Of a DNA stretch of 55,846 nt, positions 13,250 to 36,581 are shown piece after piece. A model generated the notes under the pieces. The model was not told where the DNA came from and searched no databases. It saw only the letters and a list, made by a program, of their open reading frames with translations. How positions within the stretch are numbered: the stretch's first letter is position 1; every line of letters starts with the position of its first letter. The DNA lies in the IMG/VR virus record IMGVR_UViG_3300042471_001765, positions 1 to 55,846 of that record. One strand, written 5' to 3'. Made by a program: the position numbers and the translations under genes. This DNA comes from a virus. Its lineage: Duplodnaviria; Caudoviricetes.

Positions 13250-13290
13250 TTTTCTTTATTTAGTAGGGTTTTAGTCCTAATCATACATAC

Positions 13291-13785
13291 TCATGCGATC
13301 GCTAGGAAAGTATCTAAAGTCTTTGTCGGAACTGGTTTGTGAGTGCTGAATTCTAGATTATGTTTCTTTGCCCATCTTCTCAAAGTTTTGATTGACGGAC
13401 ATCTACCCACTTGGCGAGATAGCCAATGGGGGACATCAGCACCTAGAATACCATCTGCATAGATAGCGTCGCCTAATGCCTTGTCCAGGCTCTGTTTTAA
13501 AACCGGTGATGAGTTCAGTCTTTTAATGATCTGCGGTAAAGTGATCCCTGCACTTCGTCCCACGGGCTGCTTAGTAGTGGAGTTCAAGCTTTGCTCATAC
13601 CTCATGTAAGCAAGCATCATCAACCATTGGCAATGAGTTTTACTAATGGTATTAGTGCGTGATTTCCTTTTATCTGGTATCCTGCATATATGCTTGTACT
13701 TTGCCCATGTCCGGGCAGCGATCGGCTTGCCATAAATATGTACGCAAGCTGCCCGGATCCAGTTTTCTGGGTATCCTGTTTCCAT
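13291..13785 (-). CDS. Hypothetical DNA-binding protein (two HTH-like segments)
   Basis: PIAARTWAKYK and PSIKTLRRWA helical motifs; GGAGG RBS. Confidence 0.5.
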   Translation of the reverse strand: METGYPENWIRAACVHIYGKPIAARTWAKYKHICRIPDKRKSRTNTISKTHCQWLMMLAYMRYEQSLNSTTKQPVGRSAGITLPQIIKRLNSSPVLKQSLDKALGDAIYADGILGADVPHWLSRQVGRCPSIKTLRRWAKKHNLEFSTHKPVPTKTLDTFLAIA

Positions 13786-13825
13786 GTTTCCTCCTTATTC
13801 CCTCTTTTGAGGGAATTTTTTTTTA

Positions 13826-14101
13826 TTACTCTTCTTGGGGTTCAGGGATACCTAAATCCCTGCGCATTTTTCTATTTACCAACCTTTTATTACTAGCCTC
13901 ACAGTACAGGGAGAATCCCTGCTGCCATAGCAATCGATGAAACTCAGATGGATTAATACCATCTTGCAGAGCCATTATCTCTGCTTGCTCTAATAGTGGA
14001 GTAGGCAGGTACAGTTCTATCTTTTGCATCTTGTCTTTTTTCCTAGTTCTGGGTGACACGATCTCATTTTCCATATATTGATCCTTATGCTTGCACATCA
14101 T
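13826..14101 (-). CDS. Ribbon-helix-helix-like regulator
   Basis: KIELYLPTPLLEQAEIMALQDGINPSEFHRLL; divergent from the 14.3-18.4 kb operon. Confidence 0.5.
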   Translation of the reverse strand: MMCKHKDQYMENEIVSPRTRKKDKMQKIELYLPTPLLEQAEIMALQDGINPSEFHRLLWQQGFSLYCEASNKRLVNRKMRRDLGIPEPQEE

Positions 14102-14137
14102 GATTGAAATTATAGAAGAAAAAATGTAAAAAAGTAT

Positions 14138-14207
14138 GACTAGAACATGACTAAAAATAAAATATATGTGCTATTGTTGTTTTTAGTAGGATTAGAACCC
14201 GACTAAA
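14138..14207. promoter_or_regulatory. Repeated 18-bp operator-like motif GAYTARAACNNKACTAAA
   Basis: Copies at 14138-14155 and 14190-14207; an inverted copy at 13259-13276. Confidence 0.55.
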
Positions 14208-14360
14208 TGTATTCAATCACGATAGCGGTAAGACACGAGGAGCCAGATGGCTCCTACACCGAGTGGGTGCTGAACACACCCCAAGCCCAGGAAGCTCTCA
14301 CCCAGAGAGCAAAAAGACAAATTGAGCGGCTTATTACTAAGGATAATAAGGACACAAAAA

Positions 14361-14870
14361 ATGAACATTGATGAGTACGTTAAGAGGTTTATGACCTCTG
14401 AAGTCCCCTTGGACTACGTTTGGGAACAAACCCAGAAAATATCCTCAGAAATGGGGATTGATTTACAAAACTTGGATGAGCCAACCGCTCGCTTCATTGC
14501 AGAAGAGATTGATAAAGTAGCCTCTGCAAGTTTGGCGGCAAGACCTGAAGCCGCTATTGAGAAGAAAAAGACCAAAAAAGAAAAAACTACTAATGCCAAT
14601 AATGGCAGCAGTGTAGAGAAGCTAAAACCGGCGATAGCCAACTTAAAAACCGCTGTAGAGGAAGAATCTACAGCTATGTTGGCTGTTTTCAATACCAAAG
14701 CCCAGCAGGTAGAAAACGCTGTGGCTGGAAAGATATTAGATCGCTGCAAAGCGATAAACCCAAATATCATAGCCCTCGTATCGGAAGAGATGGAGAGGTA
14801 CACACGCGACAGCGCCAGCTTTCGCGAGCAAATCTTTGATGAGACTTTCGCAGGTCTCCTCGGTGATTAA
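14361..14870 (+). CDS. Hypothetical helical protein, first gene of membrane/ATPase operon
   Basis: AAGGA RBS before the ATG at 14361. Confidence 0.65.
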   Translation: MNIDEYVKRFMTSEVPLDYVWEQTQKISSEMGIDLQNLDEPTARFIAEEIDKVASASLAARPEAAIEKKKTKKEKTTNANNGSSVEKLKPAIANLKTAVEEESTAMLAVFNTKAQQVENAVAGKILDRCKAINPNIIALVSEEMERYTRDSASFREQIFDETFAGLLGD

Positions 14871-14932
14871 GGGTAACAATGTTTACTTTTGGCTGTGCTT
14901 GATTCAAGCACTGTTAATCGCAGTAAGTATAT

Positions 14933-15286
14933 ATGCAGCAAACACAAACAACATTCAAAGAACAGCCCCCATCCCAGCAGATCGCGTTTACCCTGCGGTC
15001 TACAGGGGAGACTAAATACGAAGGGGTGAAGGACCAGGAAATTGTGGAGCAATTGCTTCACAACGCGGACTACAACCGTGACCAATACAGAAAGTCACAA
15101 TTGGAACTAAACAAAAAAATCCAAGATGAGGTGGCTTTGACCAACGCCATGACCATTGGATTTTTAGGGATATCTTTCATTACGTGCATTGTTTGCGCGT
15201 ATCTCACAGTCAACAAACCAACAATTACAGGGAACACAGTCCATGTCAATAGAACAATTATTCGGGGGAATTGTCCCCAGCCCTAG
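14933..15286 (+). CDS. Single-pass membrane protein
   Basis: Hydrophobic segment IGFLGISFITCIVCAYL. Confidence 0.6.
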   Translation: MQQTQTTFKEQPPSQQIAFTLRSTGETKYEGVKDQEIVEQLLHNADYNRDQYRKSQLELNKKIQDEVALTNAMTIGFLGISFITCIVCAYLTVNKPTITGNTVHVNRTIIRGNCPQP

Positions 15287-15680
15287 GGGTAAACTAGCCG
15301 GTCTTGGCAGTGACCCCACTAAAATTGGGGATATGGGGCAATCATTGACACGAATTAAAACCAAGATGGTACTACCCAGTGACATCTCACCCGCTTGCTT
15401 GCTAAAGCAGTCCGAAGAATTGGGTACAGTGGAAGGCGAGGTAGAACTTGCCAAACAGATTGCAGACACCCAGGGCAAACAAGTGGATAAGCTTGTGGAG
15501 TTGCACAGAATCAATACGCAATACACCCAAAAAATGATGGGCCTAGATCAAACCTTAAGGCAGATGGAAGCAAACCACGGGCGGCAAGTTGCCAAATATC
15601 AATTAAAAGCTGCGGAAACACAAGCCAACTTTGATGGATACACTCAAGCGTATCAAATGGGGGCTGAGTTATTCGGATGA
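15243..15680 (+). CDS. Coiled-coil hypothetical protein
   Basis: Q/E/K-rich helical ORF; probable start at MSIEQLF. Confidence 0.6.
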   Translation: MSIEQLFGGIVPSPRGKLAGLGSDPTKIGDMGQSLTRIKTKMVLPSDISPACLLKQSEELGTVEGEVELAKQIADTQGKQVDKLVELHRINTQYTQKMMGLDQTLRQMEANHGRQVAKYQLKAAETQANFDGYTQAYQMGAELFG

Positions 15681-15687
15681 AAAACTT

Positions 15688-15969
15688 ATGAAAAACTTAT
15701 TTTACGCAGGTTGCTGTTTTTGTGGGTACGCACTTTTTCAATTATTAGGCTTCGTAGCGGCAGCCTTTCCCGGTTCCCGCACCGGGGCTATTTCCTTAAT
15801 CATCCTCCTACTGCTATTGATCGCAGCAGTAGGACTAACCAACTGGGTAGGACTGTATTACAAACAGCACCGGATTAACAGAACCCAGACCCTGGTAGGT
15901 TTTGCTCCTGCGTTGATATTTGGAGCGATCGCATTATTTGCAGTATTGGTGGGGGTGATGATTGCATGA
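15688..15969 (+). CDS. Small three-helix membrane protein
   Basis: Three hydrophobic stretches. Confidence 0.6.
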   Translation: MKNLFYAGCCFCGYALFQLLGFVAAAFPGSRTGAISLIILLLLLIAAVGLTNWVGLYYKQHRINRTQTLVGFAPALIFGAIALFAVLVGVMIA

Positions 15970-16448
15970 TTTTCAAGAGAGGGTCGGAAGCTGATAGTTC
16001 TTTATCGGCGATCATGATGAAAGTAGGCTGGGTGGTTATTGCCTACAACGGATTTACACTATTTCCCTACTTCTATGATCTGATGATAAAAGCTGCATTC
16101 TGGCAGCGCGTATTCAGCTGTAGCGTGGCAGTGGCTTTAATTCTTGGCATAGAAGCAGCCACCATGACAGTACTTTTTGATCCGAAGGTGCTGGTGAAAA
16201 TCCTGGAAAAACCAAAACAGGATAAGGAAACCAAAGCCTTCAGCGACGTAGTGCATATGTTGGGTATATGTGGTTTCCTTTTGATCGCATCGTATACTTT
16301 TTGGTTTGACTACCAGGTAAATCTCAAACAGCTTGGTAATCCCACCATCATGTTTCTAAAAGTTTTGTCCGCAGTATTTGTCATCGGTGCGGAGCTAGCT
16401 TTTGGGTGTGCCAATGTATTTCAAATTAGCGCAAAGGAAAACTCATGA
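15966..16448 (+). CDS. Four-helix membrane protein
   Basis: Four hydrophobic stretches; ATGA coupling. Confidence 0.65.
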   Translation: MIFKRGSEADSSLSAIMMKVGWVVIAYNGFTLFPYFYDLMIKAAFWQRVFSCSVAVALILGIEAATMTVLFDPKVLVKILEKPKQDKETKAFSDVVHMLGICGFLLIASYTFWFDYQVNLKQLGNPTIMFLKVLSAVFVIGAELAFGCANVFQISAKENS

Positions 16449-16539
16449 TAATACCAGACTTATTCGGCATCTTGACCATTATCGCGATCGCGGTAATTCT
16501 TGGATTGATTTTGTGGCTAAATATTAGGGGGATGGAGCC

Positions 16540-18078
16540 ATGACAAACCCGGCGGCTAATCCCTTCGCTAGGGATAAAGATTTATTTGCACCATTATTGA
16601 TTCGAGAGAGGATACTAATGGGATTGTTCGCTACCACCGCAGTTGTGGGATGCTTTGCTCCGGTGATGTGGAATTCCCAGAAAAATGAAGTAAAGCTATT
16701 GCAGCAAATTTACGGATTATTTGCTGGTACGTGCTTTACAGCCGCTGCTTACCATCGCAAGCAAAAGGAACAGACTTACCAGGCAATCTCAGAAGCCAAC
16801 TACAAGATAGTGAATGAGCATCTAAAGGGAGTATTTGCCTACGAGGCATCACGCCAGCAAATAGAAAGCAAGCGAGAATTAGCAGAATATGTAAATTCTC
16901 TCCCATCTTACGAGCGGGAAAGATGGATGAATCAGTATGGATTACATGGATTGGTAGAGCTTCCCCAATTCCAGGAAGCAGAAATTTTACCTCAACCGCA
17001 ATTATCAGGGATGGAAATCCCTGATCCTGAGATTGCAGCAATAAATGAAGATGCAGTACAGAGCATCATCAACCCAGATGCAATGCAAGTGTTGCAGCAA
17101 TACGCAGCACAGTATCCCCAATACATCAGATTAGATGATCGCTGGATTGATGATCTATGTGGTGCTGCATCCAACCCAGATATGAAGAGCCGATACAACC
17201 ATCATTTCATGTTGGTTGGTGGTACTCAATCGGGTAAATCCACACTAGCAGGGGTGATTGTAAATAAAATCGCATCTCGCTCACAATCACCCGCCATAGT
17301 CTTGGGCAGTGACCCCAAGGATCAAGTTACCCAGTGGCTGTGTAAATTCAGCCGAAAGTTTGATGGAATGAAGGCTTTGGATTCCTGGATCTCCTTTGCC
17401 ACCGAGGTCATCCAACAACGCAAAGATCAAATAGGAGGGAATAACGGTACTGAGGGTATAGCAGAAATATTTTTTTTACAGGATGAAGTAGATACTTGCT
17501 ACGGTGGTGGTAACGGATTCCCCGGCATGGTGGAAAAAACCACGGCTAAAAATCTACAAGCACTATGGAATTACATCGCCAAGTTTACGGCGGGCTTGAA
17601 GTGTCACGGTATTTTTATGGGGCAATCACCATTGAGCGAGGCGACTGGATTTAGCCGACCAAATCTAAAAAACATCTGTTTCATGGCTTTGGGACAATTA
17701 AGCTCCTACATCCTTAGTAAACCCACAGATTTTCTCAATGTCAAATCTGAAATTATCGATTTACTCAAAGAAGTATGCAGCTTACTAGATGATGCAAGAG
17801 TACGCTATGCCCTGGTAGTGCCTACAAGAGGTAATCCCTACGTGGCTTTAATCCCCACTTTTGATATTGAGGGATTAGAGCAAAAAAGCACTACAAGAAA
17901 TCAAACCGACACAGTTGACGCTGTGAACTGGTATGAGGAATTACAAACCTGGTTTAATTCGCTAGGGAGGAAACCATCCGATCAGGAACTACAAGAACAA
18001 TGGGAAAAGATAACAGGAAAAACACTAAACGCGAAAGGTATTGCGCTATTGCAAGAGAAGCTGGCAGGCAAGACATGA
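16540..18078 (+). CDS. Membrane-anchored P-loop ATPase (FtsK/HerA/coupling-protein-like)
   Basis: Two N-terminal hydrophobic helices, HFMLVGGTQSGKST Walker A, DPK, FFLQDE Walker B and a GQS motif. Confidence 0.7.
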   Translation: MTNPAANPFARDKDLFAPLLIRERILMGLFATTAVVGCFAPVMWNSQKNEVKLLQQIYGLFAGTCFTAAAYHRKQKEQTYQAISEANYKIVNEHLKGVFAYEASRQQIESKRELAEYVNSLPSYERERWMNQYGLHGLVELPQFQEAEILPQPQLSGMEIPDPEIAAINEDAVQSIINPDAMQVLQQYAAQYPQYIRLDDRWIDDLCGAASNPDMKSRYNHHFMLVGGTQSGKSTLAGVIVNKIASRSQSPAIVLGSDPKDQVTQWLCKFSRKFDGMKALDSWISFATEVIQQRKDQIGGNNGTEGIAEIFFLQDEVDTCYGGGNGFPGMVEKTTAKNLQALWNYIAKFTAGLKCHGIFMGQSPLSEATGFSRPNLKNICFMALGQLSSYILSKPTDFLNVKSEIIDLLKEVCSLLDDARVRYALVVPTRGNPYVALIPTFDIEGLEQKSTTRNQTDTVDAVNWYEELQTWFNSLGRKPSDQELQEQWEKITGKTLNAKGIALLQEKLAGKT

Positions 18079-18398
18079 ATTACAGCAGGCGTTACGGTAA
18101 TCCTAAAAAATACCGGAAACAATGCGCGATCGCACACACCAATACTCACGGGCTGTGTTGCGTTTGCATGAATAATCCATCGCAAGAGTTGCACCATGGA
18201 TTTTACGGTAAAGATATTATCGGCATTTCTGTATTTCCTGTATGCACTCGCTGTCATCAGATGGTATGTCACAGCAAAGAAAACTGGATTAGAGATAAAA
18301 CAAATCCAGTGTGGAGAAATAGAAATACATCTAGTTTTTTAGCTAGATTGCAAATAGGCTACAAACTACTTTATGGAGGGATTCATCATGAAAAATGA
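18075..18398 (+). CDS. HNH-type endonuclease
   Basis: CCVC...ELHH...PVCTRCH...CH zinc/HNH pattern; ATGA-coupled to the ATPase. Confidence 0.65.
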   Translation: MNYSRRYGNPKKYRKQCAIAHTNTHGLCCVCMNNPSQELHHGFYGKDIIGISVFPVCTRCHQMVCHSKENWIRDKTNPVWRNRNTSSFLARLQIGYKLLYGGIHHEK

Positions 18399-18511
18399 AC
18401 AGCTATTCAATGTTTACCAAAAATGCTTAATAGAAGATGGATACACGCCATCAGTGGCAGCTAAAATGGCAGAAATTTTAGAAAGAAAAACTAACCCAAA
18501 GGAGAAAAAAA

Positions 18512-18754
18512 ATGAAAAGTAAAATTATGTTTTGTGCGTTTTCTGCGATCGCATTCAGTTTGACTTGTGCATATGGAGTAGCTCAAATCAATCTAGCTAT
18601 TCACAAGCACGAATGCGCACAGCACCACTGGGCAATACAGCAAGCCTGTAATACCTGGATAACACCGGGGGCATTGTGGAGGGGTGCTAAAGCCGGAGCC
18701 TCCACAGGCGCGATCACTGGGGCTGTAATTAGTTTGGCGGTAATTAAATTCTAA
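18512..18754 (+). CDS. Small membrane/secreted protein
   Basis: AAGGAG RBS; hydrophobic N- and C-termini. Confidence 0.55.
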   Translation: MKSKIMFCAFSAIAFSLTCAYGVAQINLAIHKHECAQHHWAIQQACNTWITPGALWRGAKAGASTGAITGAVISLAVIKF

Positions 18755-18877
18755 AGAGGGGTAATGGCTTACTACACAGTAATTATTGATGGGAAAAAAT
18801 TTAGAGTCTACGCCAGCGATCCGGCTGATGCTTACATCAAAGCGATCGCACAAAGTAGAAAGTAAAAAGGAGAAACA

Positions 18878-19465
18878 ATGCAAGTATTAATTTGGGGAGA
18901 TTACGCCTGCTTCACGCGTCCGGAATTGAAAGCAGAGCCATTTTCGTACAATTACCCCACCTTTAGCGCGATCACAGGGGTGCTAGAGAATATCTACTGG
19001 AAGCCTGAAATGAAATACAAAATTAATTTTATTTTAGTTTGCAATCCAATTAAGAGGGCAAAATTTAAAATTAATGGCATCCAGGATAAGGCAAAAATAT
19101 CCAACATTGGCGGGATTCTAGCCGATGATTATAGTGTGCGCACACAAAGGAATTTAAATGTTTTGAAAAATGTGCGATATGTAGTAGATTTTGAGATTGA
19201 TCCACAGCGAACCGTGGACATCAAAAAACACAATTCCATCATCTACCGAAGGATTGAAAAAGGACAATATTATCACCATCCATGCCTGGGGTTTAAGAAA
19301 TTCCCTGCTTATTTTTCATTTCCAGTTGGTGATGAAAAAGGGCATCCATCCTTACTAGATGAGGAATATGTGGCTTTAAAGTACCTAAATTTTACAGGAA
19401 GCAAGGTCAAGCCTGAGTTTGGAATTTATCAAATTACGAAGGGTAAAATATGCTGCTTGAATTAG
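18878..19465 (+). CDS. cas5: Type I-C Cas5 (Cas5c/Cas5d)
   Basis: WGDYACFTRPELKAE..SY..PT.SA..G.LE.IYWKP and Y..PCLG...FPAYF are diagnostic. Confidence 0.95.
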   Translation: MQVLIWGDYACFTRPELKAEPFSYNYPTFSAITGVLENIYWKPEMKYKINFILVCNPIKRAKFKINGIQDKAKISNIGGILADDYSVRTQRNLNVLKNVRYVVDFEIDPQRTVDIKKHNSIIYRRIEKGQYYHHPCLGFKKFPAYFSFPVGDEKGHPSLLDEEYVALKYLNFTGSKVKPEFGIYQITKGKICCLN

Positions 19466-21003
19466 CCGAATTAGGCAAAAAATTAGAAGCACAAGGGTTA
19501 TTGGCTCCTTTTGGCTATGGCTTTATATCCATAGCATGGGAGTTGATGCTAAATGAAGACTCTGTAGATATAATTCCAGTGGCTACAGATTCAAAGCTAA
19601 AAACAAAAAAAATGTGTATTCCCGACATTGCTAGGAATAACACAAATCCCATCGCTCCCTGCGATAGTGCCGAATATGTACTAGGCTTAGGCGATCGCGG
19701 TGAATCGAGACACCAAAAATACTTGAATCTTCTCAAAGAATTGTACGGAGACCTGGAACTAGGACGCAAATTACATCAAGTCTTGACAGAAAAAAAATAC
19801 ACTGTTCCCACAAAAATGAATAGTGGCGATCGCTTGGTTATCAGCTTCGATGGTGTGTTCTTACATGAATTACCAGAATTTAAATCTCGGTGGATTTTAT
19901 ACGTAAATTCACAGCAAGAAACAATTACTGGAACTTGTAGCTTATCGGGTAAGGAATGCCAGGCTTTTGAAAAAACCATCCCAAAAAAGATCAAAGGCGT
20001 GCGGGGAAGCTTATCTTCTGGTGCTGCTTTAATCAGCTTCGATAAAGACTTCTCTCAAAGCTATGGATGGAAAAATAATGAAAATGCCTTAATAGATAAA
20101 GACATAATCTTACTAGCGTACCGATCGCTAGAATGGATTTTGAATGAAAAAACAACCCACTGGCATTGTGGGAACGATGATCTGACTTTCATTTTTTGGG
20201 GTGACGCTAGCGAGGGAATCCATGATGATATTTGGAATAGCGACATCACTAAAATCGACGGTGCTTTTACATCACTGGATGGTAATGGTTATCGTCGGAA
20301 ATATCCTCTATCTAATAGCTTTGTTTTTTGCACTCTCAAGGGCAACAGCGGGAGGATTTCGTTAGAAGATGTTGGAAAGATTAGCGCCGAAAACATTAGA
20401 AGCAACATAGAAAGATTTTTCCAGGATCAATTAATCAATGAATCCTGGAAACCTTACCCCATATGGCGACTAGTTTCTACAATGTACAAAAATCCAAAAA
20501 AAGAGTACACGAAAGATATTAAAAAATCACTTGCTGAATTAATGCTTTTTGGTACTCCATTACCTCGAAAAGTGGTAACATTATTATTAGCTAGAATATA
20601 CGCCGATCGCGACATAAAAAGCAGAGCCAATATTTTAGCCTTGTATGCAAAAACAACATTACTTCAAAATAAGAAGATGAAAAGTAAACAAGCAGAAGCT
20701 TTAGGACGCATAGCTTTTTGCCTGCATCAAGCACAATCCATCCAGAGAGGGAGTAGCAATACAAACATTATCAAATGTTTAAAAGCCTTAGCCCATTATC
20801 CTTGTAAACATTTTCATAGACTTTTAATCTCTTTTCAAAGAGATTATTTCCTTGTCACCCTATCCACTCGTATAGGTGAGCTATCGAGGGGATTAGAAAT
20901 ACCGGAAACACTTACAAAAGAAGAGCAGACCGTATTCATGCTCGGATTCATACAGGAACAAGATGAATACTGGTCCGCTAAAAACAAAGAGGTAACTCAA
21001 TGA
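19450..21003 (+). CDS. cas8c: Type I-C Cas8c (Csd1)
   Basis: D.AEYVLG, CSLSG, KIKGV, GAALISFDK...SYG and KGNSGRIS motifs; located between cas5 and cas7. Confidence 0.9.
   Translation: MLLELAELGKKLEAQGLLAPFGYGFISIAWELMLNEDSVDIIPVATDSKLKTKKMCIPDIARNNTNPIAPCDSAEYVLGLGDRGESRHQKYLNLLKELYGDLELGRKLHQVLTEKKYTVPTKMNSGDRLVISFDGVFLHELPEFKSRWILYVNSQQETITGTCSLSGKECQAFEKTIPKKIKGVRGSLSSGAALISFDKDFSQSYGWKNNENALIDKDIILLAYRSLEWILNEKTTHWHCGNDDLTFIFWGDASEGIHDDIWNSDITKIDGAFTSLDGNGYRRKYPLSNSFVFCTLKGNSGRISLEDVGKISAENIRSNIERFFQDQLINESWKPYPIWRLVSTMYKNPKKEYTKDIKKSLAELMLFGTPLPRKVVTLLLARIYADRDIKSRANILALYAKTTLLQNKKMKSKQAEALGRIAFCLHQAQSIQRGSSNTNIIKCLKALAHYPCKHFHRLLISFQRDYFLVTLSTRIGELSRGLEIPETLTKEEQTVFMLGFIQEQDEYWSAKNKEVTQ
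20677..21003 (+). CDS. cas11: Putative Cas11c from an in-frame internal start in cas8c
   Basis: In-frame ATG after AAGAAG giving MKSKQAEALGRIAF...EEQTVFMLGF, matching the LGR...F.LG domain known to be translated separately in type I-C. Confidence 0.6.
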   Translation: MKSKQAEALGRIAFCLHQAQSIQRGSSNTNIIKCLKALAHYPCKHFHRLLISFQRDYFLVTLSTRIGELSRGLEIPETLTKEEQTVFMLGFIQEQDEYWSAKNKEVTQ

Positions 21004-21806
21004 TAACGCAATCCACAACGCGCCATGACGCGATGGCATTCATAGAAGTAATCGACGGGAACCCCAACGGTGACCCGGATAACAATAATGAGCCACGCAG
21101 TGATATATCGACTGGACAAGGGTTGATATCTGATGTGTCCCTCAAAAGGCAAATCAGGAATACCCGCACCCTGAGCGGGTATGATGACATCTTCATCAAA
21201 CAAGGGGCTGCACTAAACGCACTGATGGAAGAGTGCTGGGGTAAATCTAAATTCAATTTAAACACCGACAGGGAAAATATCACCAACATTTTAATTGAAA
21301 AATACTGGGATATAAGAATGTTTGGGCAAGTCCTCAGTACAGGAAAAACACCAGGCTACCCTGTCCGGGGGTGCTTACAGATATCTTTCGGACGCTCCCT
21401 AGATCCGATTGAAATAGCCGAACACACCATTACCCGGTGTGCTAGCGCCAAACAGGAAGAAGAAAAAGAAAATAAAACCATGGGGAATAAAATGACAGTC
21501 CCGTATGGACTTTACACCTTTCGCATTGCTTTTTGCCCAAACAATAAAGCTAGTGATGAAGATTTAGAGTTTTTCTGGCAAGCTCTAAAATCTTGCTGGG
21601 AACTGAATAGATCAGCTAGCAGGGGGTTTATGGCGACAAGGCAAATAGTAATTTTCTCCCATGAAAGCCGTTTAGGATCAGCCCCGACACATGATTTGTT
21701 TGATACTGTATCTGTAGCCAAACAAGTTGAATTCCCCAGAAAATGGGAAGATTACAAAATTACTTACAAGGATATTCCAGAGGGGATATCCAGAACCATT
21801 TTGTAA
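21000..21806 (+). CDS. cas7: Type I-C Cas7 (Csd2)
   Basis: GNPNGDPD..NEPR, SDVSLKRQIR, DIRMFG, TITR and MGNK..VPYGLY motifs. Confidence 0.96.
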   Translation: MITQSTTRHDAMAFIEVIDGNPNGDPDNNNEPRSDISTGQGLISDVSLKRQIRNTRTLSGYDDIFIKQGAALNALMEECWGKSKFNLNTDRENITNILIEKYWDIRMFGQVLSTGKTPGYPVRGCLQISFGRSLDPIEIAEHTITRCASAKQEEEKENKTMGNKMTVPYGLYTFRIAFCPNNKASDEDLEFFWQALKSCWELNRSASRGFMATRQIVIFSHESRLGSAPTHDLFDTVSVAKQVEFPRKWEDYKITYKDIPEGISRTIL

Positions 21807-21811
21807 TTCCT

Positions 21812-21832
21812 TAAGCCCTTCGGGGCTTTTTA
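21812..21832 (+). terminator. Hairpin between cas7 and cas3
   Basis: AAGCCC-TTCG-GGGCTT followed by a T-run. Confidence 0.65.
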
Positions 21833-21836
21833 ATAA

Positions 21837-23822
21837 ATGCAAAAACAATTTTATGCTCGCATCTCAGATTCCCGCGGGCAACTTCTAAAAAATCACCTCT
21901 TGGAAGTTGCCAACCTAATGAATGAAAGATCCAAAGAAAAATTCAGGATTTACGCTTATTACATAGGCTTATGGCACGACTTAGGCAAATACAGAGAAGA
22001 ATGGCAGAATTACTTGATTAATGCGATCGCGGGCAAGAACCAAGAGCGTATTCATCACGCAGGGTATGGTGCTTGTGTATGTGAGCATCCTGTAATTAAT
22101 GGAATTATCGCGGGTCACCATAGTTCTATCAAGCCGCCGGAGCAAATAGGTGAAAATAGTATGGCTTTCGCTAAATACGAGAAAGAATATCAAGAATGTA
22201 TTGCCAACGCCACCCAAGAGATACCCCACTTTATCCAAGAAATTCCCAGAATCAAGCAAGCGCCAAACAATCGAGATGTAATGGCGAGGATGCTTTACTC
22301 ATTACTGATTGATAGCGATCGCTTAAATGCCCACTGCTTCTCAACATCCACCGATTGGAATGAGATTATTGATAATTCCGGCAGGGTGGTAATCAATATT
22401 AATATTCCCAGACACAATGAAAATACCTCAATCAATTCACTAAGAAATAAGTTTAGAACCACAGCCCTAAAAGCAGCCAAGAACAAACCAGGGTTGTACA
22501 AGCTCACCGGAGCCACAGGAATAGGCAAAACATATACAGCTTTTGAGTTTGCAGCATTGCACAACAACTTTAACAAAATGAATGGAGTTGTTTATGTTGC
22601 TCCTTTTAATAGCATATTAGACCAGACATCATCAGCAATTCACAAAATAGTTGAAAACGAAATACTAGATCACTATGGCAGCTTTGACAATTCAGACTCA
22701 CCAGCCATGCGCATTTCCTGTTCTCGGTGGGACAAACCAGTTATCTTGACTAGCATGGTACAACTGCTATCTAGTATGTTCAGCGATCGCGCGACGAAAG
22801 TCAGGAAATTACAAGGCTTAATCGATAGAGTAATCATCATTGATGAACCCCAATCTTTACCAATAAAATGCATTACTCCCATCCTAAATATGTTGTCTGC
22901 ATTAGTGGAAGATTGGGGATGTTCGGTAATATTCATGTCCGCCACGCAACCAGTATTTAATAATATTGGCACTTGGAATTTTCAAGATATCATCTCAAAA
23001 GATTTTCATCGCGATCACTCCTTAAAGCGAGCTAATTATAAATACTATCCAGAGCCAATGAAGTGGAAAGAATTACAAAATAAAGTTTGTTTGGAGTCAA
23101 TGGCATTAATTATTTTCAGTACCACTCAAAATGCCAGAGATTTCTATCATCAATTAAAAGTAGCCACCGACAAACCAGTACTGCATTTAAGCAGTAAGAT
23201 GTACATCCTGCATCGCAAGCAAGTATTAAGCCAAGTCCGTCGGTTGTTGGCAGAAGACAAAGATTTTTACTTAATCTCTACCCAAGTAGTAGAAGCTGGA
23301 ATTGATCTTGATTTTCCCTGTGTATTCAGGCAAATAGCCCCTATTCCTTCAATCATTCAAGCCCAAGGACGACTTAACAGAGAAGGTAAAAGAGACCCCA
23401 AAAATTCATGGCTACACATTTTTAATCTTGCAGAAGGAAACATACTGCCAGAAGATATCAAAGGCGCGGCAATTTCTCACACCCTATTAACACAAAACAA
23501 AGATTTAAATGACCTCAATGACATCTATTATCGTCGCTACTTGACAACCACCACCGACACCGGAGAAGAAATCGAAGCCCTCAGATACCAACAAAAATAT
23601 GATCAAGTAGCCGAAAAATTCAACATCATAGAAAATCAAAACACAGTCCTGGTTTTAGCTGAAGATTTTTTGAAAGACTATCAATATAAATCCCTCACAC
23701 CATCAGATTGGCAGATACTGCGATCATATACAGTCAACACCAGATCAAATAATTATATTGAATGGATAAATGGTATTTTGTGCTGGAATGGTGGGTATGA
23801 TGAGTGTGGAATTATGATATAA
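21837..23822 (+). CDS. cas3: Cas3 HD nuclease-helicase (compact, 661 aa)
   Basis: H..HDLGK, GHH and LIDSD (HD domain); TGIGKT, IIIDEPQ, MSAT, TQVVEAGIDLDF and QAQGRLNREG (SF2 helicase). Confidence 0.95.
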   Translation: MQKQFYARISDSRGQLLKNHLLEVANLMNERSKEKFRIYAYYIGLWHDLGKYREEWQNYLINAIAGKNQERIHHAGYGACVCEHPVINGIIAGHHSSIKPPEQIGENSMAFAKYEKEYQECIANATQEIPHFIQEIPRIKQAPNNRDVMARMLYSLLIDSDRLNAHCFSTSTDWNEIIDNSGRVVININIPRHNENTSINSLRNKFRTTALKAAKNKPGLYKLTGATGIGKTYTAFEFAALHNNFNKMNGVVYVAPFNSILDQTSSAIHKIVENEILDHYGSFDNSDSPAMRISCSRWDKPVILTSMVQLLSSMFSDRATKVRKLQGLIDRVIIIDEPQSLPIKCITPILNMLSALVEDWGCSVIFMSATQPVFNNIGTWNFQDIISKDFHRDHSLKRANYKYYPEPMKWKELQNKVCLESMALIIFSTTQNARDFYHQLKVATDKPVLHLSSKMYILHRKQVLSQVRRLLAEDKDFYLISTQVVEAGIDLDFPCVFRQIAPIPSIIQAQGRLNREGKRDPKNSWLHIFNLAEGNILPEDIKGAAISHTLLTQNKDLNDLNDIYYRRYLTTTTDTGEEIEALRYQQKYDQVAEKFNIIENQNTVLVLAEDFLKDYQYKSLTPSDWQILRSYTVNTRSNNYIEWINGILCWNGGYDECGIMI

Positions 23823-23830
23823 TGGGGGGA

Positions 23831-24006
23831 GTAACAATCCCTCGCAAGGGGGGTTGAGGATTGTAATTAGGAAGCGCTAGATTGTCAGGGCTTAACGGTA
23901 ACAATCCCTCGCAAGGGGGGTTGAGGATTTTAACATCGAAATACACCCAAAAAAGCGCGCGAGCCGGGAGTAACAATCCCTCGCAAGGGGGGTTGAGGAT
24001 TGTAAC
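23831..24006 (+). CRISPR. Mini CRISPR array: three 37-bp repeats, two spacers (30 and 35 nt)
   Basis: Repeat GTAACAATCCCTCGCAAGGGGGGTTGAGGATTGTAAC at 23831-23867, 23898-23934 and 23970-24006 (at most 1 mismatch each). Spacers TAGGAAGCGCTAGATTGTCAGGGCTTAACG and ATCGAAATACACCCAAAAAAGCGCGCGAGCCGGGA. Confidence 0.93.
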
Positions 24007-24050
24007 GAGGATTGCAACAATGTAACAACCACGGAGCCATATCAGACAGT

Positions 24051-24090
24051 AATAAAAACACCCGGTGCGGCAACACCGGGTTTTTATTTA
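24051..24090 (+). terminator. Terminator closing the CRISPR transcript
   Basis: acccggtg-cggcaa-caccgggt-ttttattt. Confidence 0.75.
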
Positions 24091-24311
24091 AAAAAAATCC
24101 CGTCCCTGGCAAATCATGCAAAATACCATAATCCCTATCTTCCCCACACACAATCAAGGCTTATTCCTGCATCTATAAAAGCTTTTTTATTAAATCGTGC
24201 CTACTGGTGAGGCATAGAGGCGCGATCGCGGGCAACAACCATTAACTGATAAGCAATTGACTAGGGACATGACATCTGCATTATTATTAAAAAAGTAATT
24301 GCCATAATCCT

Positions 24312-24545
24312 ATGAAAAAATTTAAAGTTATAATCCTGGGAAAATTAAGAAAATTTGGCGCGAAAGGCGCAGTCATTAAGCCCGGAACAAAAAAAGGTGA
24401 TAGCTACTGCGCGCGATCGCTCAAAATCAGAAAATGTAAAAATCCCCCATGTGCCAATGACTTATCACGGGCTGCATGGGGGTGTGTAGGCAAGAAGTCC
24501 TACAAAAGCCGGGTAAGGTTTCCCAAAAAAACAATCCGGCTTTAG
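24312..24545 (+). CDS. Small very basic Cys-containing protein
   Basis: K-rich with a GTKKGDSYCARS motif. Confidence 0.55.
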   Translation: MKKFKVIILGKLRKFGAKGAVIKPGTKKGDSYCARSLKIRKCKNPPCANDLSRAAWGCVGKKSYKSRVRFPKKTIRL

Positions 24546-24985
24546 TTAATGTCGTTAAAAAATACAACTTCCACGTCGATGTGATCGTAGTCTTCAGTGA
24601 CTACGCTTTTTAAATGGGAATTAAACTTAATTCCCTTAATATTTTTATACTCCTTAACCTTAACATCGCCATAGAATTTGGCAACTCCTATATCCGGAGT
24701 AGCGAAAAGGACTGAATACTCACTATCCGGTCTTGATGACCGAACACCTCGGTACAGCAGGGGAAATATTTCCCCATGATTGGCTACAGCCCATCTCAAC
24801 GCTGCGATCGCTAGCAGCGTTGAGGGTTTGGGATTTTGATGGTAATTGCCTTGCATGGAAGCAAGGCGAATCTGGCGGTGGGCGTAATACAGATTAAGGA
24901 AATCAACATCTGGCGGAACTTCATCCAAATCGGTGATCATGAGATCACCATCCTTAAACCAGAAATACGAAAATTCATGAAACAT
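24542..24985 (-). CDS. Hypothetical protein, possible ADP-ribosyltransferase-like fold
   Basis: LYRG...FATPD..VAKFYG...VEVVF spacing. Confidence 0.35.
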   Translation of the reverse strand: MFHEFSYFWFKDGDLMITDLDEVPPDVDFLNLYYAHRQIRLASMQGNYHQNPKPSTLLAIAALRWAVANHGEIFPLLYRGVRSSRPDSEYSVLFATPDIGVAKFYGDVKVKEYKNIKGIKFNSHLKSVVTEDYDHIDVEVVFFNDIN

Positions 24986-25508
24986 TTTTTACCCCCTTTG
25001 ATAATAATTCCAATTCTGAGACCAAACAGCACAAGTCCACTCGGTCTCTTCCTGTCAAGAATTTTAGCGATCCTTTGATCGCTACTAATGAATCCTTGCG
25101 GACAAAATTACTGAATTCAGCAACCTTGCCCCACATTTCCAGTGGGAGCCACTCGGTGGTAGCTCCCGGTCTTTCCAATTCCAAAAAGGAAGTGGCTTTA
25201 CACTTTCCTGATTGGAAATACCGAATTACTGGATCCTTAAGGACAGCGCCTACAAGAATCCAAGTATTAATTTTGCCTTCGCATACTTGCAGATGAGAGC
25301 TACTCATTTGCAACTTGGGGACTTGGATATAATTCAAGCCCCCGGATACCACCACTTCTTGCCCCTCTCGAACAGAGGGGATGAATGCCGGGCTTCCCCA
25401 GCATTCAATCTCTTGTCCTCCTACTTGAATGTAGGAGAATAAAACATTATCGTTCCTCAATATTTGTGGGCGGGTGACTACCCCGCCAATCGTTATACTA
25501 TTGATCAT
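24975..25508 (-). CDS. ssb: Single-stranded DNA-binding protein (two OB folds)
   Basis: INSITIGG..., then LVGAVLKDPVIRYFQSGK...WLPLEMWGKVAE..FVRKDSLVAIKGSLK, a cyanobacterial SSB pattern. Confidence 0.8.
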   Translation of the reverse strand: MINSITIGGVVTRPQILRNDNVLFSYIQVGGQEIECWGSPAFIPSVREGQEVVVSGGLNYIQVPKLQMSSSHLQVCEGKINTWILVGAVLKDPVIRYFQSGKCKATSFLELERPGATTEWLPLEMWGKVAEFSNFVRKDSLVAIKGSLKFLTGRDRVDLCCLVSELELLSKGVKNVS

Positions 25509-35865: not shown

Positions 35866-35876
35866 CTGACTAACTA

Positions 35877-35910
35877 AAAAAAACCCTGTAATCGCTCGCT
35901 GATTACAGGG
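35877..35910. terminator. Terminator (T-tract on the minus strand)
   Basis: aaaaaaa-ccctgtaatc-gctcgct-gattacaggg. Confidence 0.8.
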
Positions 35911-35949
35911 CAGGCATTAAACACAAAAGAAAAAGACAAATCTAACATA

Positions 35950-35981
35950 TTTACAATCCCCCCCTTGCGAGGGATTGTTAC
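35950..35981 (-). CRISPR. Solitary variant CRISPR repeat
   Basis: Minus strand GTAACAATCCCTCGCAAGGGGGGGATTGTAAA equals the array repeat minus TTGAG; preceded by TGATATAATGGGG as at the array. Confidence 0.85.
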
Positions 35982-35999
35982 CCCCATTATATCACAGCT

Positions 36000-36581
36000 T
36001 CACACCGTGGCAACAGTGATCGCTTGGGGCTGATTTTGATATTTGCCAGAGCGATCGGCGTAAGTGGTTTGGCATGGTTCTCCTTCTAAAAATAGAAGCT
36101 GTATCACCCCTTCATTAGCATAGATGCGACAATCAGCACTGGAAGCGTTGCTAAATTCCAGGGTTAAAAATCCTTCCCATGAGGCTTCCGCTGGGGTGAT
36201 GTTTGCAATTATCCCACACCGTGCCATGGTTGATTTGCCAGTACAAATAACTGTGATATTGGCAGGTACGCACAACCTTTCTAAAGAGACACCCAAAGCG
36301 TAGGAGTTAGCAGGGATAATAAAAAACGATCCATCTTCATCTGTCCGCAGGGTGGCAGGTTCTAGGTTGTCAGGGTTAAACCGTTTAGGGTTAACAATCG
36401 TCCCTGGAATATGCCTAAAAATGCGAAAGTCTGTAGGAGCCAACCTTAAATCATAGCCATAGCTAGACAAGCCATAACTAATAACTCGCCTATCTTCAAC
36501 CATCCGCACCATAGAACCTTCAAAGGGCGCGATCATCCCTTGTTTGGCTTGTTCAATAATCCATTTATCGTTTTTCAGCAT
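36000..36581 (-). CDS. dcd: dCTP deaminase
   Basis: ISYGLSSYGYDLRL, GKST.ARCGI, TPAEA.WEG.LTLE and YADR.GKYQ.Q motifs. Confidence 0.95.
   Translation of the reverse strand: MLKNDKWIIEQAKQGMIAPFEGSMVRMVEDRRVISYGLSSYGYDLRLAPTDFRIFRHIPGTIVNPKRFNPDNLEPATLRTDEDGSFFIIPANSYALGVSLERLCVPANITVICTGKSTMARCGIIANITPAEASWEGFLTLEFSNASSADCRIYANEGVIQLLFLEGEPCQTTYADRSGKYQNQPQAITVATV

Follow-up and report, generated by a model that had tools for sequence, protein, structure and literature searches.

A type I-C CRISPR-Cas module with a three-repeat array, very probably carried by a lake cyanophage

The locus described here raises the question of whether a cyanophage carries a type I-C CRISPR-Cas interference system of its own and, if it does, where that system came from and whether it could still act. 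The window, by which we mean the whole stretch of 55,846 nt that was analysed, is the entire IMG/VR record IMGVR_UViG_3300042471_001765, which is classed as viral and has a CheckV completeness of about 51%. A sequence-only reading had described it as containing a compact, phage-encoded type I-C module without adaptation genes; the features as we place them are listed in Table 1. Our preferred explanation, which we hold with moderate confidence when it is taken as one statement with activity included, is an active type I-C Cascade-Cas3 interference module in a cyanophage, descended from a cyanobacterial subclade of such systems.

Table 1. Positions of the features of the module and of the orphan repeat unit in the window
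Feature	Position	Strand	Remark
cas5c (195 aa)	18878..19465	+	predicted pre-crRNA endonuclease / 5'-handle binder
cas8c (517 aa)	19450..21003	+	large subunit, type I-C signature gene
Putative internal cas11c frame (108 aa)	20677..21003	+	inside cas8c, M410 to stop
cas7c (268 aa)	21000..21806	+	backbone subunit
cas3 (661 aa)	21837..23822	+	HD nuclease fused to SF2 helicase
Candidate array promoter TGATATAATGGGGG	23815..23828	+	extended -10-like box (TGnTATAAT) overlapping last cas3 codons
CRISPR mini-array	23831..24006	+	3 repeats, 2 spacers
R1	23831..23867	+	37 nt, 1 mismatch to consensus, ends in T instead of C
Spacer 1	23868..23897	+	30 nt
R2	23898..23934	+	37 nt, 1 mismatch, T for G five bases from end
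Spacer 2	23935..23969	+	35 nt
R3	23970..24006	+	37 nt, 0 mismatches to consensus
Tandem near-copy of 12-nt repeat end	24007..24018	+	1 mismatch, directly 3' of R3
Intrinsic-terminator-like hairpin with T run	24060..24090	.	bidirectional, closes cas-array unit
T-rich unique sequence (~35 nt) and terminator hairpin	35875..35950	-	downstream of orphan repeat
Orphan unit	35951..35994	-	14-nt promoter-like box, then truncated repeat copy

The carrier is a siphovirus-like lake cyanophage of filamentous (Nostocales-type) cyanobacteria. The window encodes head-morphogenesis and virion proteins and a ribonucleotide reductase, and the downstream flank of the module includes genes for SSB, Erf, DUF5131 and dCTP deaminase. 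One protein of 1120 aa shares 56% identity with Nodularia phages, and the relatives of the phage have genomes of 95-147 kb. Its backbone is related to that of Aphanizomenon phage vB_AphaS-CL131 (MG209611), with which positions 13277-18063 are colinear over gp121-gp108 (57.6% identity for gp108). Unlike the present phage, CL131 has no cas gene annotated up to 9 kb from the point of synteny. It reportedly carries a different, type V-U-like CRISPR system elsewhere in its genome. A misassembly of host chromosome or of another element onto phage DNA might be suspected from the cyanobacterial nature of the nearest cellular relatives of the cas genes and from a GC fraction that is slightly lower at 18-24 kb (0.396-0.402) than in most of the flanks, but independent contigs from runs X2 and X3, which are other lake metagenomes, cross both module junctions without differences. 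In X2, which comes from another study, a 2852-nt contig spans 17103-19954 with no differences and a 1402-nt contig spans 23976-25377. The gene order, too, is unlike that of every host locus seen, and the cas block is not recent host DNA because its identity to any host Cas protein is only 29-45%. With phage genes on both flanks, synteny to CL131 as far as 18063 and contigs across both junctions, the earlier claim of a phage-borne locus stands: the module is very probably genuine, and we regard a misjoin as scarcely credible.

All four cas open reading frames are intact, with the lengths, positions and strand first reported, and a Shine-Dalgarno sequence (AAGGAG) lies 6 nt 5' of the cas5c ATG. 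Four independent profile libraries assign the products to Cas5c, Cas8c, Cas7c and Cas3c. Cas5 matched PF09704 (61.7 bits) and the PADLOC Cas5c model (3e-37), scored just below the curated cut-off of 85 for the NCBIfam Cas5c model TIGR01876 (82.3 bits) and, among solved structures, came closest to the Cas5d/Cas5c chains 3kg4_A (2e-26) and 7kha_A (9.6e-26). Cas8c matched PF09709 over residues 7-505 (170.4 bits, cut-off 27), four PADLOC Cas8c models (1e-39 to 3.3e-35) and a solved Cas8c chain (2.4e-14), and stayed under the equivalog cut-off of NCBIfam TIGR01863 (125.3 bits, cut-off 218.65). Cas7 was identified by TIGR02589 (231.7 bits, cut-off 182.25) and PF05107 (253.6 bits), and Cas3 by the PADLOC Cas3c model PDLC01765 (3.9e-144) and TIGR01596 cas3_HD (68.4 bits, cut-off 43.45); TIGR01587 cas3_core (97 bits, cut-off 102.45) and Pfam Cas3_HD (16.4, cut-off 23.1) scored below threshold. 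The expectation of a type I-C system with Cas5c and without Cas6 is borne out by the Cas5c profile and structure matches and by a six-frame search of the window, which gave no match to Cas6 (PF01881) at E<=1. On the plus strand the repeat folds into a hairpin followed by an 11-nt unpaired tail (-13.9 kcal/mol, z -3.16); a 3' stem-loop and then an 11-nt handle ending ...ATTGAAAC are what one looks for in a type I-C repeat. Judged by gene content and repeat, the module is type I-C.

Its arrangement is cas5-cas8c-cas7-cas3-array rather than the usual cas3-cas5-cas8c-cas7-cas4-cas1-cas2, which does not exclude type I-C because subtypes are themselves variable in gene order and in their adaptation module. 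The canonical Cascade-Cas3 systems of Desulfovibrio vulgaris and Neisseria lactamica (7KHA, 8DEJ, 8G9U, 8ZNS) share with the phage module Cas5c, Cas8c, Cas7c and an HD-helicase Cas3, the absence of Cas6, and a repeat hairpin with an 11-nt handle; they differ from it in gene order, in having cas4-cas1-cas2 and in the handle, which in the phage has T at position -4. They differ in size as well, phage Cas8c having 517 aa against 612 in the D. vulgaris chain and phage Cas3 661 aa against 771 in that of N. lactamica, while solved Cas5 chains have 205-227 aa and the open reading frames of the nearest host locus (L001) 221, 581, 294 and 688 aa. With 1641 aa in total, the module is smaller, as had been claimed, but "compact" overstates a modest reduction of about 6-12% below the comparators.

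The nuclease and helicase motifs that had been read in Cas3 were confirmed in an alignment of 11 sequences (A1), in which H20, H47-D48, H74, H94-H95, D159/D161, GxGKT (228-232), D336-E337-x-Q339, S368-A-T370 and Q508xxGR512 are invariant; Y77 replaces a His present in all ten other sequences. The metal ligands H25 and H52-D53 of N. lactamica Cas3 align to phage H20 and H47-D48, and the equivalent of its H8 is unaligned. A small subunit may also be made. Internal translation of the type I-C small subunit is described in PMC7684278, and the phage module would by analogy produce a putative Cas11c from a start within cas8c: AAGAAG abuts the ATG at 20677, and a Met stands 5-14 residues before the invariant Ala415, ahead of the Cas11-like C-terminus, in 10/10 aligned subclade Cas8c proteins, whose overall Met content is 1.1-2.4%.

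An exhaustive search found a single close relative of the phage Cas8c (P0002, 88% identity, 518 aa), the next best being 37% identical. This second lineage has, with its full-length Cas8c, a full-length Cas3 (P0026, 92%, 663 aa) that keeps all motifs, and we read this retention as a sign of purifying selection. The Cas3 tree places the phage pair on a long branch (1.17) inside a clade of nine rows (support 99) that is otherwise cyanobacterial. The cellular systems closest to the phage module belong to a cyanobacterial type I-C subclade (Cas3 36-38% by tblastn; Cas8c 29-33%, against 19-27% elsewhere), which we sampled as nine loci (L001, L002, L003, L019, L024, L004-L006 and L009) from hosts that include Sphaerospermopsis NIES-73, Anabaena FACHB-1237, Cuspidothrix and Calothrix PCC 7716 (L001, L002, L003, L019, L024). 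The subclade has the same four genes and a 37-nt repeat that agrees with that of the phage, single changes aside, in its first 8 and last 14 positions (GTxACAAT at the start, TTGAGGATTGxAAC at the end). The hosts, however, have cas3 transcribed divergently from cas5-cas8-cas7 and the array behind cas7, directly so in 5/9 loci, whereas the phage has its four genes in colinear order with the array after cas3. The number of repeats is 9-41 in the host arrays and three in the phage, host hairpins are A+T-rich, and the host leaders are absent from the phage, in which only 8 bp follow cas3. Descent of the phage module from this subclade belongs to the explanation that we favour and shares its moderate grade.

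Six-frame searches of the window for Cas1, Cas2 and Cas4 gave no match at E<=1, and neither did tblastn with verified Cas4, Cas1 and Cas2 sequences. The sequence-only reading had spoken of a system without adaptation genes; this is upheld for the window but not for the phage, since the record covers only some half of a genome, and absence is established just for the 18.9 kb before and the 31.7 kb after the module. Among canonical loci of at least 19 kb, 23/24 have cas4/cas1/cas2. The lack in the phage is probably inherited from the cyanobacterial subclade rather than a phage speciality, because none of the nine nearest cellular loci has cas1 or cas2 nearby; in two complete genomes, hundreds of kb separate the locus from the closest Cas1. 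Some members may keep adaptation genes, because L004 has cas4 at its contig edge. A subclade with long arrays but no cas1-cas2 of its own raises the question of where its spacers come from.

The array has three repeats and starts 8 bp after the cas3 stop (23820-23822), as first read, and no repeat match arose in any of 100 shuffled sequences. Its candidate promoter is a consensus match only, a general promoter scan of the array region having given no signal above shuffles, and the locus was present in no RNA run; the identical 14-mer occurs twice in the window, the second time before the orphan repeat, and none of 100 shuffles reached two. The phage repeat ends in GAGGATTGTAAC, whereas 41/44 arrays adjoining Cas3 relatives have ATTG[A/G]AAC, from which the phage consensus copy differs once and R1 and R2 twice. 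Both spacers stand behind a repeat whose handle is altered, R2 lacking the G kept in those 41/44 arrays, and the consensus handle is found only in R3, after which no true spacer stands. The handle mutations, the duplicated handle fragment after R3 and the presence of just two spacers, neither with a target in the collections searched, would suit a phage that has kept its Cas proteins while its own array decays, the effector using host crRNAs or being lost in its turn; the handle of the host subclade, AGGATTGAAAC, agrees with the phage consensus at all but one of 11 positions. We think this rather unlikely, because the hairpin sequence is wholly different between phage and host repeats, the phage-type repeat core occurs in 0/151 genomes of the related host family, the repeats retain good folding, and the array is equipped with a promoter-like box and a terminator of its own.

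No spacer target was found in the window itself, in 50,697 phage records, in IMG/VR (exact cores and seed patterns), in plasmids or, at <=3 mismatches, in 401 genomes of the order of the related host, and spacer 2 had none in JGI metagenome contigs; with no protospacer found, no PAM can be read for comparison with the TTC type expected of type I-C. The two spacers, the lack of adaptation genes and the lack of a host-like leader make it most likely that the phage uses fixed guides, and these would probably be directed at a rival phage or a plasmid, or else at a host island of its lake hosts. The weapon role and the reliance on host Cas1-2 proposed in the sequence-only reading found no support, the former for want of a protospacer in the collections searched, the latter for want of a leader like that of the hosts. 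In the working that we propose for the favoured interference module, the operon would be transcribed from upstream of cas5 and the mini-array also from the extended -10 box inside the end of cas3. Cas5c would cut each repeat at the 3' base of the hairpin, leaving an 11-nt 5' handle, and would assemble on the crRNA with several Cas7c subunits, Cas8c and internally translated Cas11c. The complex would then find a PAM-flanked match and recruit the HD-helicase Cas3, by which the DNA would be shredded. Besides the missing targets, what speaks against this reading is the altered handle before each spacer, Y77 in Cas3, the scores of Cas8c, Cas5c and cas3_core below the NCBIfam cut-offs, a promoter that is a consensus match and a record of about half a genome. 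If active, the module would be a natural case of a phage of bloom cyanobacteria that turns DNA shredding by Cas3 on its rivals or on host islands, and its four genes in 4.95 kb would offer a somewhat smaller Cas3 tool.

Phage-encoded CRISPR-Cas systems that lack adaptation genes are a class already described, which the present module joins as a new member. The type I-C variant of huge phages, as Al-Shayeb et al. 2020 (PMC7162821) present it, is also phage-encoded, with a Cas5d-like Cas5 and no Cas6, Cas1 or Cas2, but another helicase replaces Cas3 and the genomes exceed 200 kb; the present module has a true HD-helicase Cas3, and the relatives of its carrier have the smaller genomes given above. 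The review PMC11656645 describes complete type I effector modules with Cas3 as rare in phages below 200 kb. One phage of ordinary size with a type I system, according to the same review, is Vibrio phage ICP1, whose interference-competent type I-F system includes an adaptation module and many spacers that target a known host island; the present window has no adaptation module, and its spacers have no known target. Text searches of the literature brought up no report of a type I-C system in a cyanophage.

The orphan unit lies 6 nt beyond the stop codon of the dCTP deaminase open reading frame (36000-36581, minus strand). Its repeat copy keeps a hairpin identical to that of the phage's own repeat and has no 11-nt handle, because it lacks 5 nt. 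In PMC10651486 and 10.1101/2023.03.03.530964, solitary repeat units, RNA anti-CRISPRs and crRNA-like regulators resemble it as lone viral repeat-like hairpins with a promoter-like box; the orphan differs from them in copying the phage's repeat instead of the host's and in having no recognisable partial target at the cas promoter. An RNA anti-CRISPR mimicking a host repeat was rejected, the related host repeats having other stems, and so was a CreR/crlRNA-type regulator made from the orphan or post-R3 sequence, which should show partial, PAM-flanked complementarity to the cas promoter or a toxin promoter: no seed match in 18080-18900 rose above the window-wide background, and the only matches of at least 11 nt were T-rich runs elsewhere.

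A module serving regulation or counter-defence rather than DNA destruction, with Cascade acting on partially matching promoters or phage Cas proteins and repeat RNAs disturbing host type I-C, could include this handle-less promoter-hairpin unit in its circuit, and PMC10651486, 10.1101/2023.03.03.530964, 10.1101/2024.10.29.618823 and the review PMC11656645 describe repeat-like RNAs with regulatory roles as well as RNA anti-CRISPRs. We judge it clearly improbable: the intact nuclease and helicase motifs of Cas3 are unneeded for regulation alone, the orphan hairpin copies the repeat of the phage and not that of the host, seed matches of the spacers, post-R3 and orphan sequences upstream of cas5 (18080-18900) did not exceed the window-wide background, and matches of at least 11 nt to a plausible target were absent from the window, only T-rich runs elsewhere being hit. 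Kinship with the subclade does raise the question of whether phage and host components can be swapped. A guide pool shared by phage and host, in which phage Cascade loads host type I-C crRNAs and the orphan hairpin titrates Cas5c as a brake, seems highly improbable to us; if true, it would turn the host's spacer memory against the phage's competitors, a way of working undescribed so far. The orphan region itself folds, over 35885-35985 (minus strand), at -35 kcal/mol (z -3.41), a value that none of 200 shuffles matched.

All four genes named by the sequence-only reading, cas5, cas8c, cas7 and cas3, were recognised at the sizes it had given, and the HD and helicase motifs of Cas3, which it had described as intact, are so. 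The strong calls are Cas7c, with 231.7 bits to TIGR02589 (cut-off 182.25), and Cas3, which matched the PADLOC Cas3c profile (3.9e-144) and TIGR01596 cas3_HD (68.4 bits, cut-off 43.45). Cas8c and Cas5c are more distant, the former scoring 170.4 bits to PF09709 and 125.3 to TIGR01863, below its cut-off of 218.65, and the latter 82.3 to TIGR01876, below its cut-off of 85; a strong Shine-Dalgarno sequence lies upstream of cas5. In an alignment of 11 Cas3 sequences, H20, H47-D48, H74, H94-H95, D159/D161, GxGKT, DExQ, SAT and QxxGR are invariant, and H20 and H47-D48 of the phage protein align with H25 and H52-D53, the metal ligands of NlaCas3 (PMC11417383). An oddity is residue 77 of the HD domain, a Tyr in the phage protein and a His in all ten other aligned sequences, that of its 92%-identical relative included.

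Components of the phage-borne type I-C module and of the orphan repeat unit
Feature	Position	Strand	Product or content	Recognised by
cas5c	18878-19465	+	195 aa	Pfam, NCBIfam, PADLOC
cas8c	19450-21003	+	517 aa	Pfam, NCBIfam, PADLOC
cas7c	21000-21806	+	268 aa	Pfam, NCBIfam, PADLOC
cas3	21837-23822	+	661 aa	Pfam, NCBIfam, PADLOC
Orphan unit	35951-35994 (whole element 35875-35994)	-	identical 14-nt TGATATAATGGGGG box and truncated repeat copy	

The reported lack of cas1, cas2 and cas4 held throughout the window, an IMG/VR record that is linear and estimated to be 51% complete: a six-frame search gave no profile match to Cas1, Cas2, Cas4 or Cas6, and tblastn with Pfam-verified Cas4, Cas1 and Cas2 queries gave no match. 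The module belongs to a known class, phage-borne adaptation-less CRISPR-Cas. According to PMC7162821, the CRISPR systems of huge phages as a rule lack Cas1, Cas2 and Cas4, and a type I-C variant among them has another helicase in place of Cas3; in PMC11656645, CRISPR systems are termed rare in phages smaller than 200 kb. Text searches of the literature gave no cyanophage type I-C system, and the consulted passages of a survey of cyanobacterial type I systems (PMC11903412) do not treat one; more phage-borne loci of type I-C may be catalogued in the supplement of PMC7162821.

That the locus is phage-encoded, as had been proposed, is borne out by phage genes on both sides, by synteny with the Aphanizomenon phage vB_AphaS-CL131 (MG209611) and by metagenome contigs over its junctions. 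The window encodes head-morphogenesis proteins, virion proteins, ribonucleotide reductase and a 1120-aa protein with 56% identity to Nodularia siphophage proteins, and SSB, Erf, DUF5131 and dCTP deaminase are encoded downstream of the array. Positions 13277-18063 are colinear with gp121-gp108 of CL131, and the ORF that immediately precedes the module shares 57.6% identity with gp108; the similarity ends at 18063, so the module lies at a synteny break. The stretch recurs in lake and freshwater metagenomes, in 15 rows drawn from 14 studies; three of these rows, one of them possibly the source, contain half or more of the sampled words, and no RNA run is listed among the sequencing runs. In one lake run, X2, contigs corresponding to 17103-19954, 21270-23860 and 23976-25377 have zero differences to the window, and a second run, X3, is similar. 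Both module junctions are thus present in other samples, since contigs of these runs cross them. A misjoining of host chromosome to the phage, the hazard that the sequence-only reading had raised, was not seen in these junction contigs, and we reject a misassembly of the module into the phage. The array interior is spanned by no single contig among the metagenome pieces listed.

Two features of the upstream flank deserve mention. The CL131 gp108 (641 aa) homologue is represented at 16540-18398 by a pair of overlapping ORFs, 512 and 132 aa long, and an X2 contig omits 471 bases between 17636 and 18108, with loose ends at 17597 and 18133; from this gap and these ends, the gene is variable or split in the population. 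Just 5' of cas5, at 18512-18866, are two small ORFs. The product of one, 80 aa long, is hydrophobic at its N-terminus and matched nothing in Pfam or PHROG; the second, of 33 aa, has a Shine-Dalgarno-like sequence of its own.

The phage appears to have acquired, and to have rearranged, a type I-C system of a kind that already lacked adaptation genes, because the most similar cyanobacterial loci are without Cas1 and Cas2 and have similar repeats. Megablast of 18500-24200 against phages found no close DNA relative, and we found no Cas3 relatives in IMG/VR and no Cas8c relatives in JGI metagenome contigs. Cas8c and Cas3 each have a single close relative, P0002 at 88% and P0026 at 92% identity. A Cas8c identical to that of the phage, P0001, is encoded on a contig of 69,810 bp, and P0002 on one of 74,202 bp. 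The next best Cas8c reached 24% in a word-index search and 37% in an exhaustive search, which returned 22 clusters at 1e-30 or below, mostly about 540-560 aa long; after P0026, Cas3 is nearest to Nostocales proteins at 37-41% (Nostoc, Nodularia, Anabaena, Sphaerospermopsis, Dolichospermum). Among 80 loci, nine from cyanobacteria (L001-L006, L009, L019, L024) have cas5-cas8-cas7 divergent from cas3, and their Cas8c proteins are 29-33% identical to that of the phage, except in L009 (24%), against 19-27% elsewhere. In a Cas3 tree of 81 rows (IQ-TREE quick search, LG+G4; L019 excluded as too short) the phage pair sits on a long branch (1.17) within a clade (99*) that holds seven of the divergent-cas3 cyanobacterial loci, and the remaining 16 type I-C rows from cyanobacteria belong to a different clade. 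The Cas3 phylogeny called for by the sequence-only reading therefore places the phage pair among cyanobacterial loci that are themselves without cas1 and cas2: none of the nine subclade loci has Cas1 or Cas2, and one, L004, encodes Cas4, at the edge of its contig. Cas1, Cas2 and Cas4 are all present in 23 of 24 canonical loci of at least 19 kb.

The nearest host locus, L001, is flanked by hypothetical genes, a transposase fragment and a NACHT protein, and in its genome, as in a Calothrix genome, the Cas1 genes are distant from the type I-C locus. Its ORFs have 221, 581, 294 and 688 aa against 195, 517, 268 and 661 aa in the phage. The arrays of these hosts comprise 9-41 repeats, each 37 nt long; the first eight and last fourteen repeat positions are common to subclade hosts and phage bar single changes, whereas the stems differ. 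In L001, L002, L005, L019 and L024, where cas3 is divergent and the array lies directly 3' of cas7, no cas1, cas2 or cas4 is nearby, yet there are 9-41 repeats.

The phage array begins 8 bases 3' of the cas3 stop and consists of three 37-nt repeats with spacers of 30 and 35 nt, its position and repeat number being those first read from the DNA. On the cas strand the repeat forms a hairpin with an unpaired 11-base tail behind it (fold -13.9 kcal/mol, z -3.16), and this is the type I-C repeat layout. Its 3' end is GAGGATTGTAAC, and ATTG[A/G]AAC is the repeat end in 41 of 44 arrays adjoining Cas3 relatives. The last base of repeat 1 is T, and repeat 2 is without a G that related arrays retain, so that the handles of both spacers, that is, the 11-nt repeat tails, are non-consensus. 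A TGnTATAAT box, which we take as a candidate array promoter, overlaps the final cas3 codons a few bases 5' of repeat 1; the 14-mer box TGATATAATGGGGG has one further identical copy in the genome, preceding another repeat copy. A promoter scan of the region found 22, not above shuffles (mean 18.3). A separate Rfam search at gathering thresholds gave 0 matches. A bidirectional terminator lies at 24060-24081, and an exact search of IMG/VR with the repeat core gave no match. In tandem after repeat 3, at 24007-24018, is a 12-nt near-copy of the repeat 3' end (one mismatch), with no fourth repeat following.

We propose that the array would be transcribed from the box at the end of cas3, that Cas5c would cut the base of each repeat hairpin, and that Cas5c, Cas7c, Cas8c and an internally started Cas11c would form Cascade, with Cas3 degrading the target afterwards. 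A candidate internal start in cas8c, a Met 5-14 residues before an invariant Ala415, is found in 10/10 subclade members, and the principle of Cas11c from an internal start is described in PMC7684278. Fixed guides are the most economical reading of the array because adaptation genes and a host-like leader are both lacking and the spacers number only two. Against full activity speak Y77 of Cas3, the non-consensus handles and the lack of a protospacer. The search of IMG/VR and cyanobacterial genomes that had been suggested for the spacers yielded no target: neither has a protospacer in the window, 50,697 phage records, IMG/VR (exact cores and seed patterns), plasmids, or 401 genomes of a related host's order (up to 3 mismatches), and spacer 2 has none in JGI metagenome contigs. 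At 15520-15534, within a coding region, 15 nt are identical to the central part of spacer 2; this match was dismissed as chance, having no seed match, CAA at the PAM position and no TTC-like flank. Conversely, 107 host type I-C spacers gave no match longer than 17 nt to the window; 6 of the 107 have matches of at least 15 nt, as spacer 2 does.

The second copy of the box belongs to an orphan unit that starts 6 nt past the stop codon of the dCTP deaminase gene. Its repeat copy retains the hairpin, which is the phage's own and not a host's, and is without the 11-nt handle because 5 nt are missing; a T-rich stretch of about 35 nt and then a terminator follow. Neither the cas promoter nor any other part of the window has a recognisable partial target for it, and the unit and the sequence after repeat 3 had only chance-level matches to phages. 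The orphan unit may be a duplication relic, or it may be a small RNA that acts on Cas5c of the phage itself. A short contig from a further lake run, X4, is not a version of the array carrying different spacers but derives from this unit, which lies near 35.95 kb in the phage genome.
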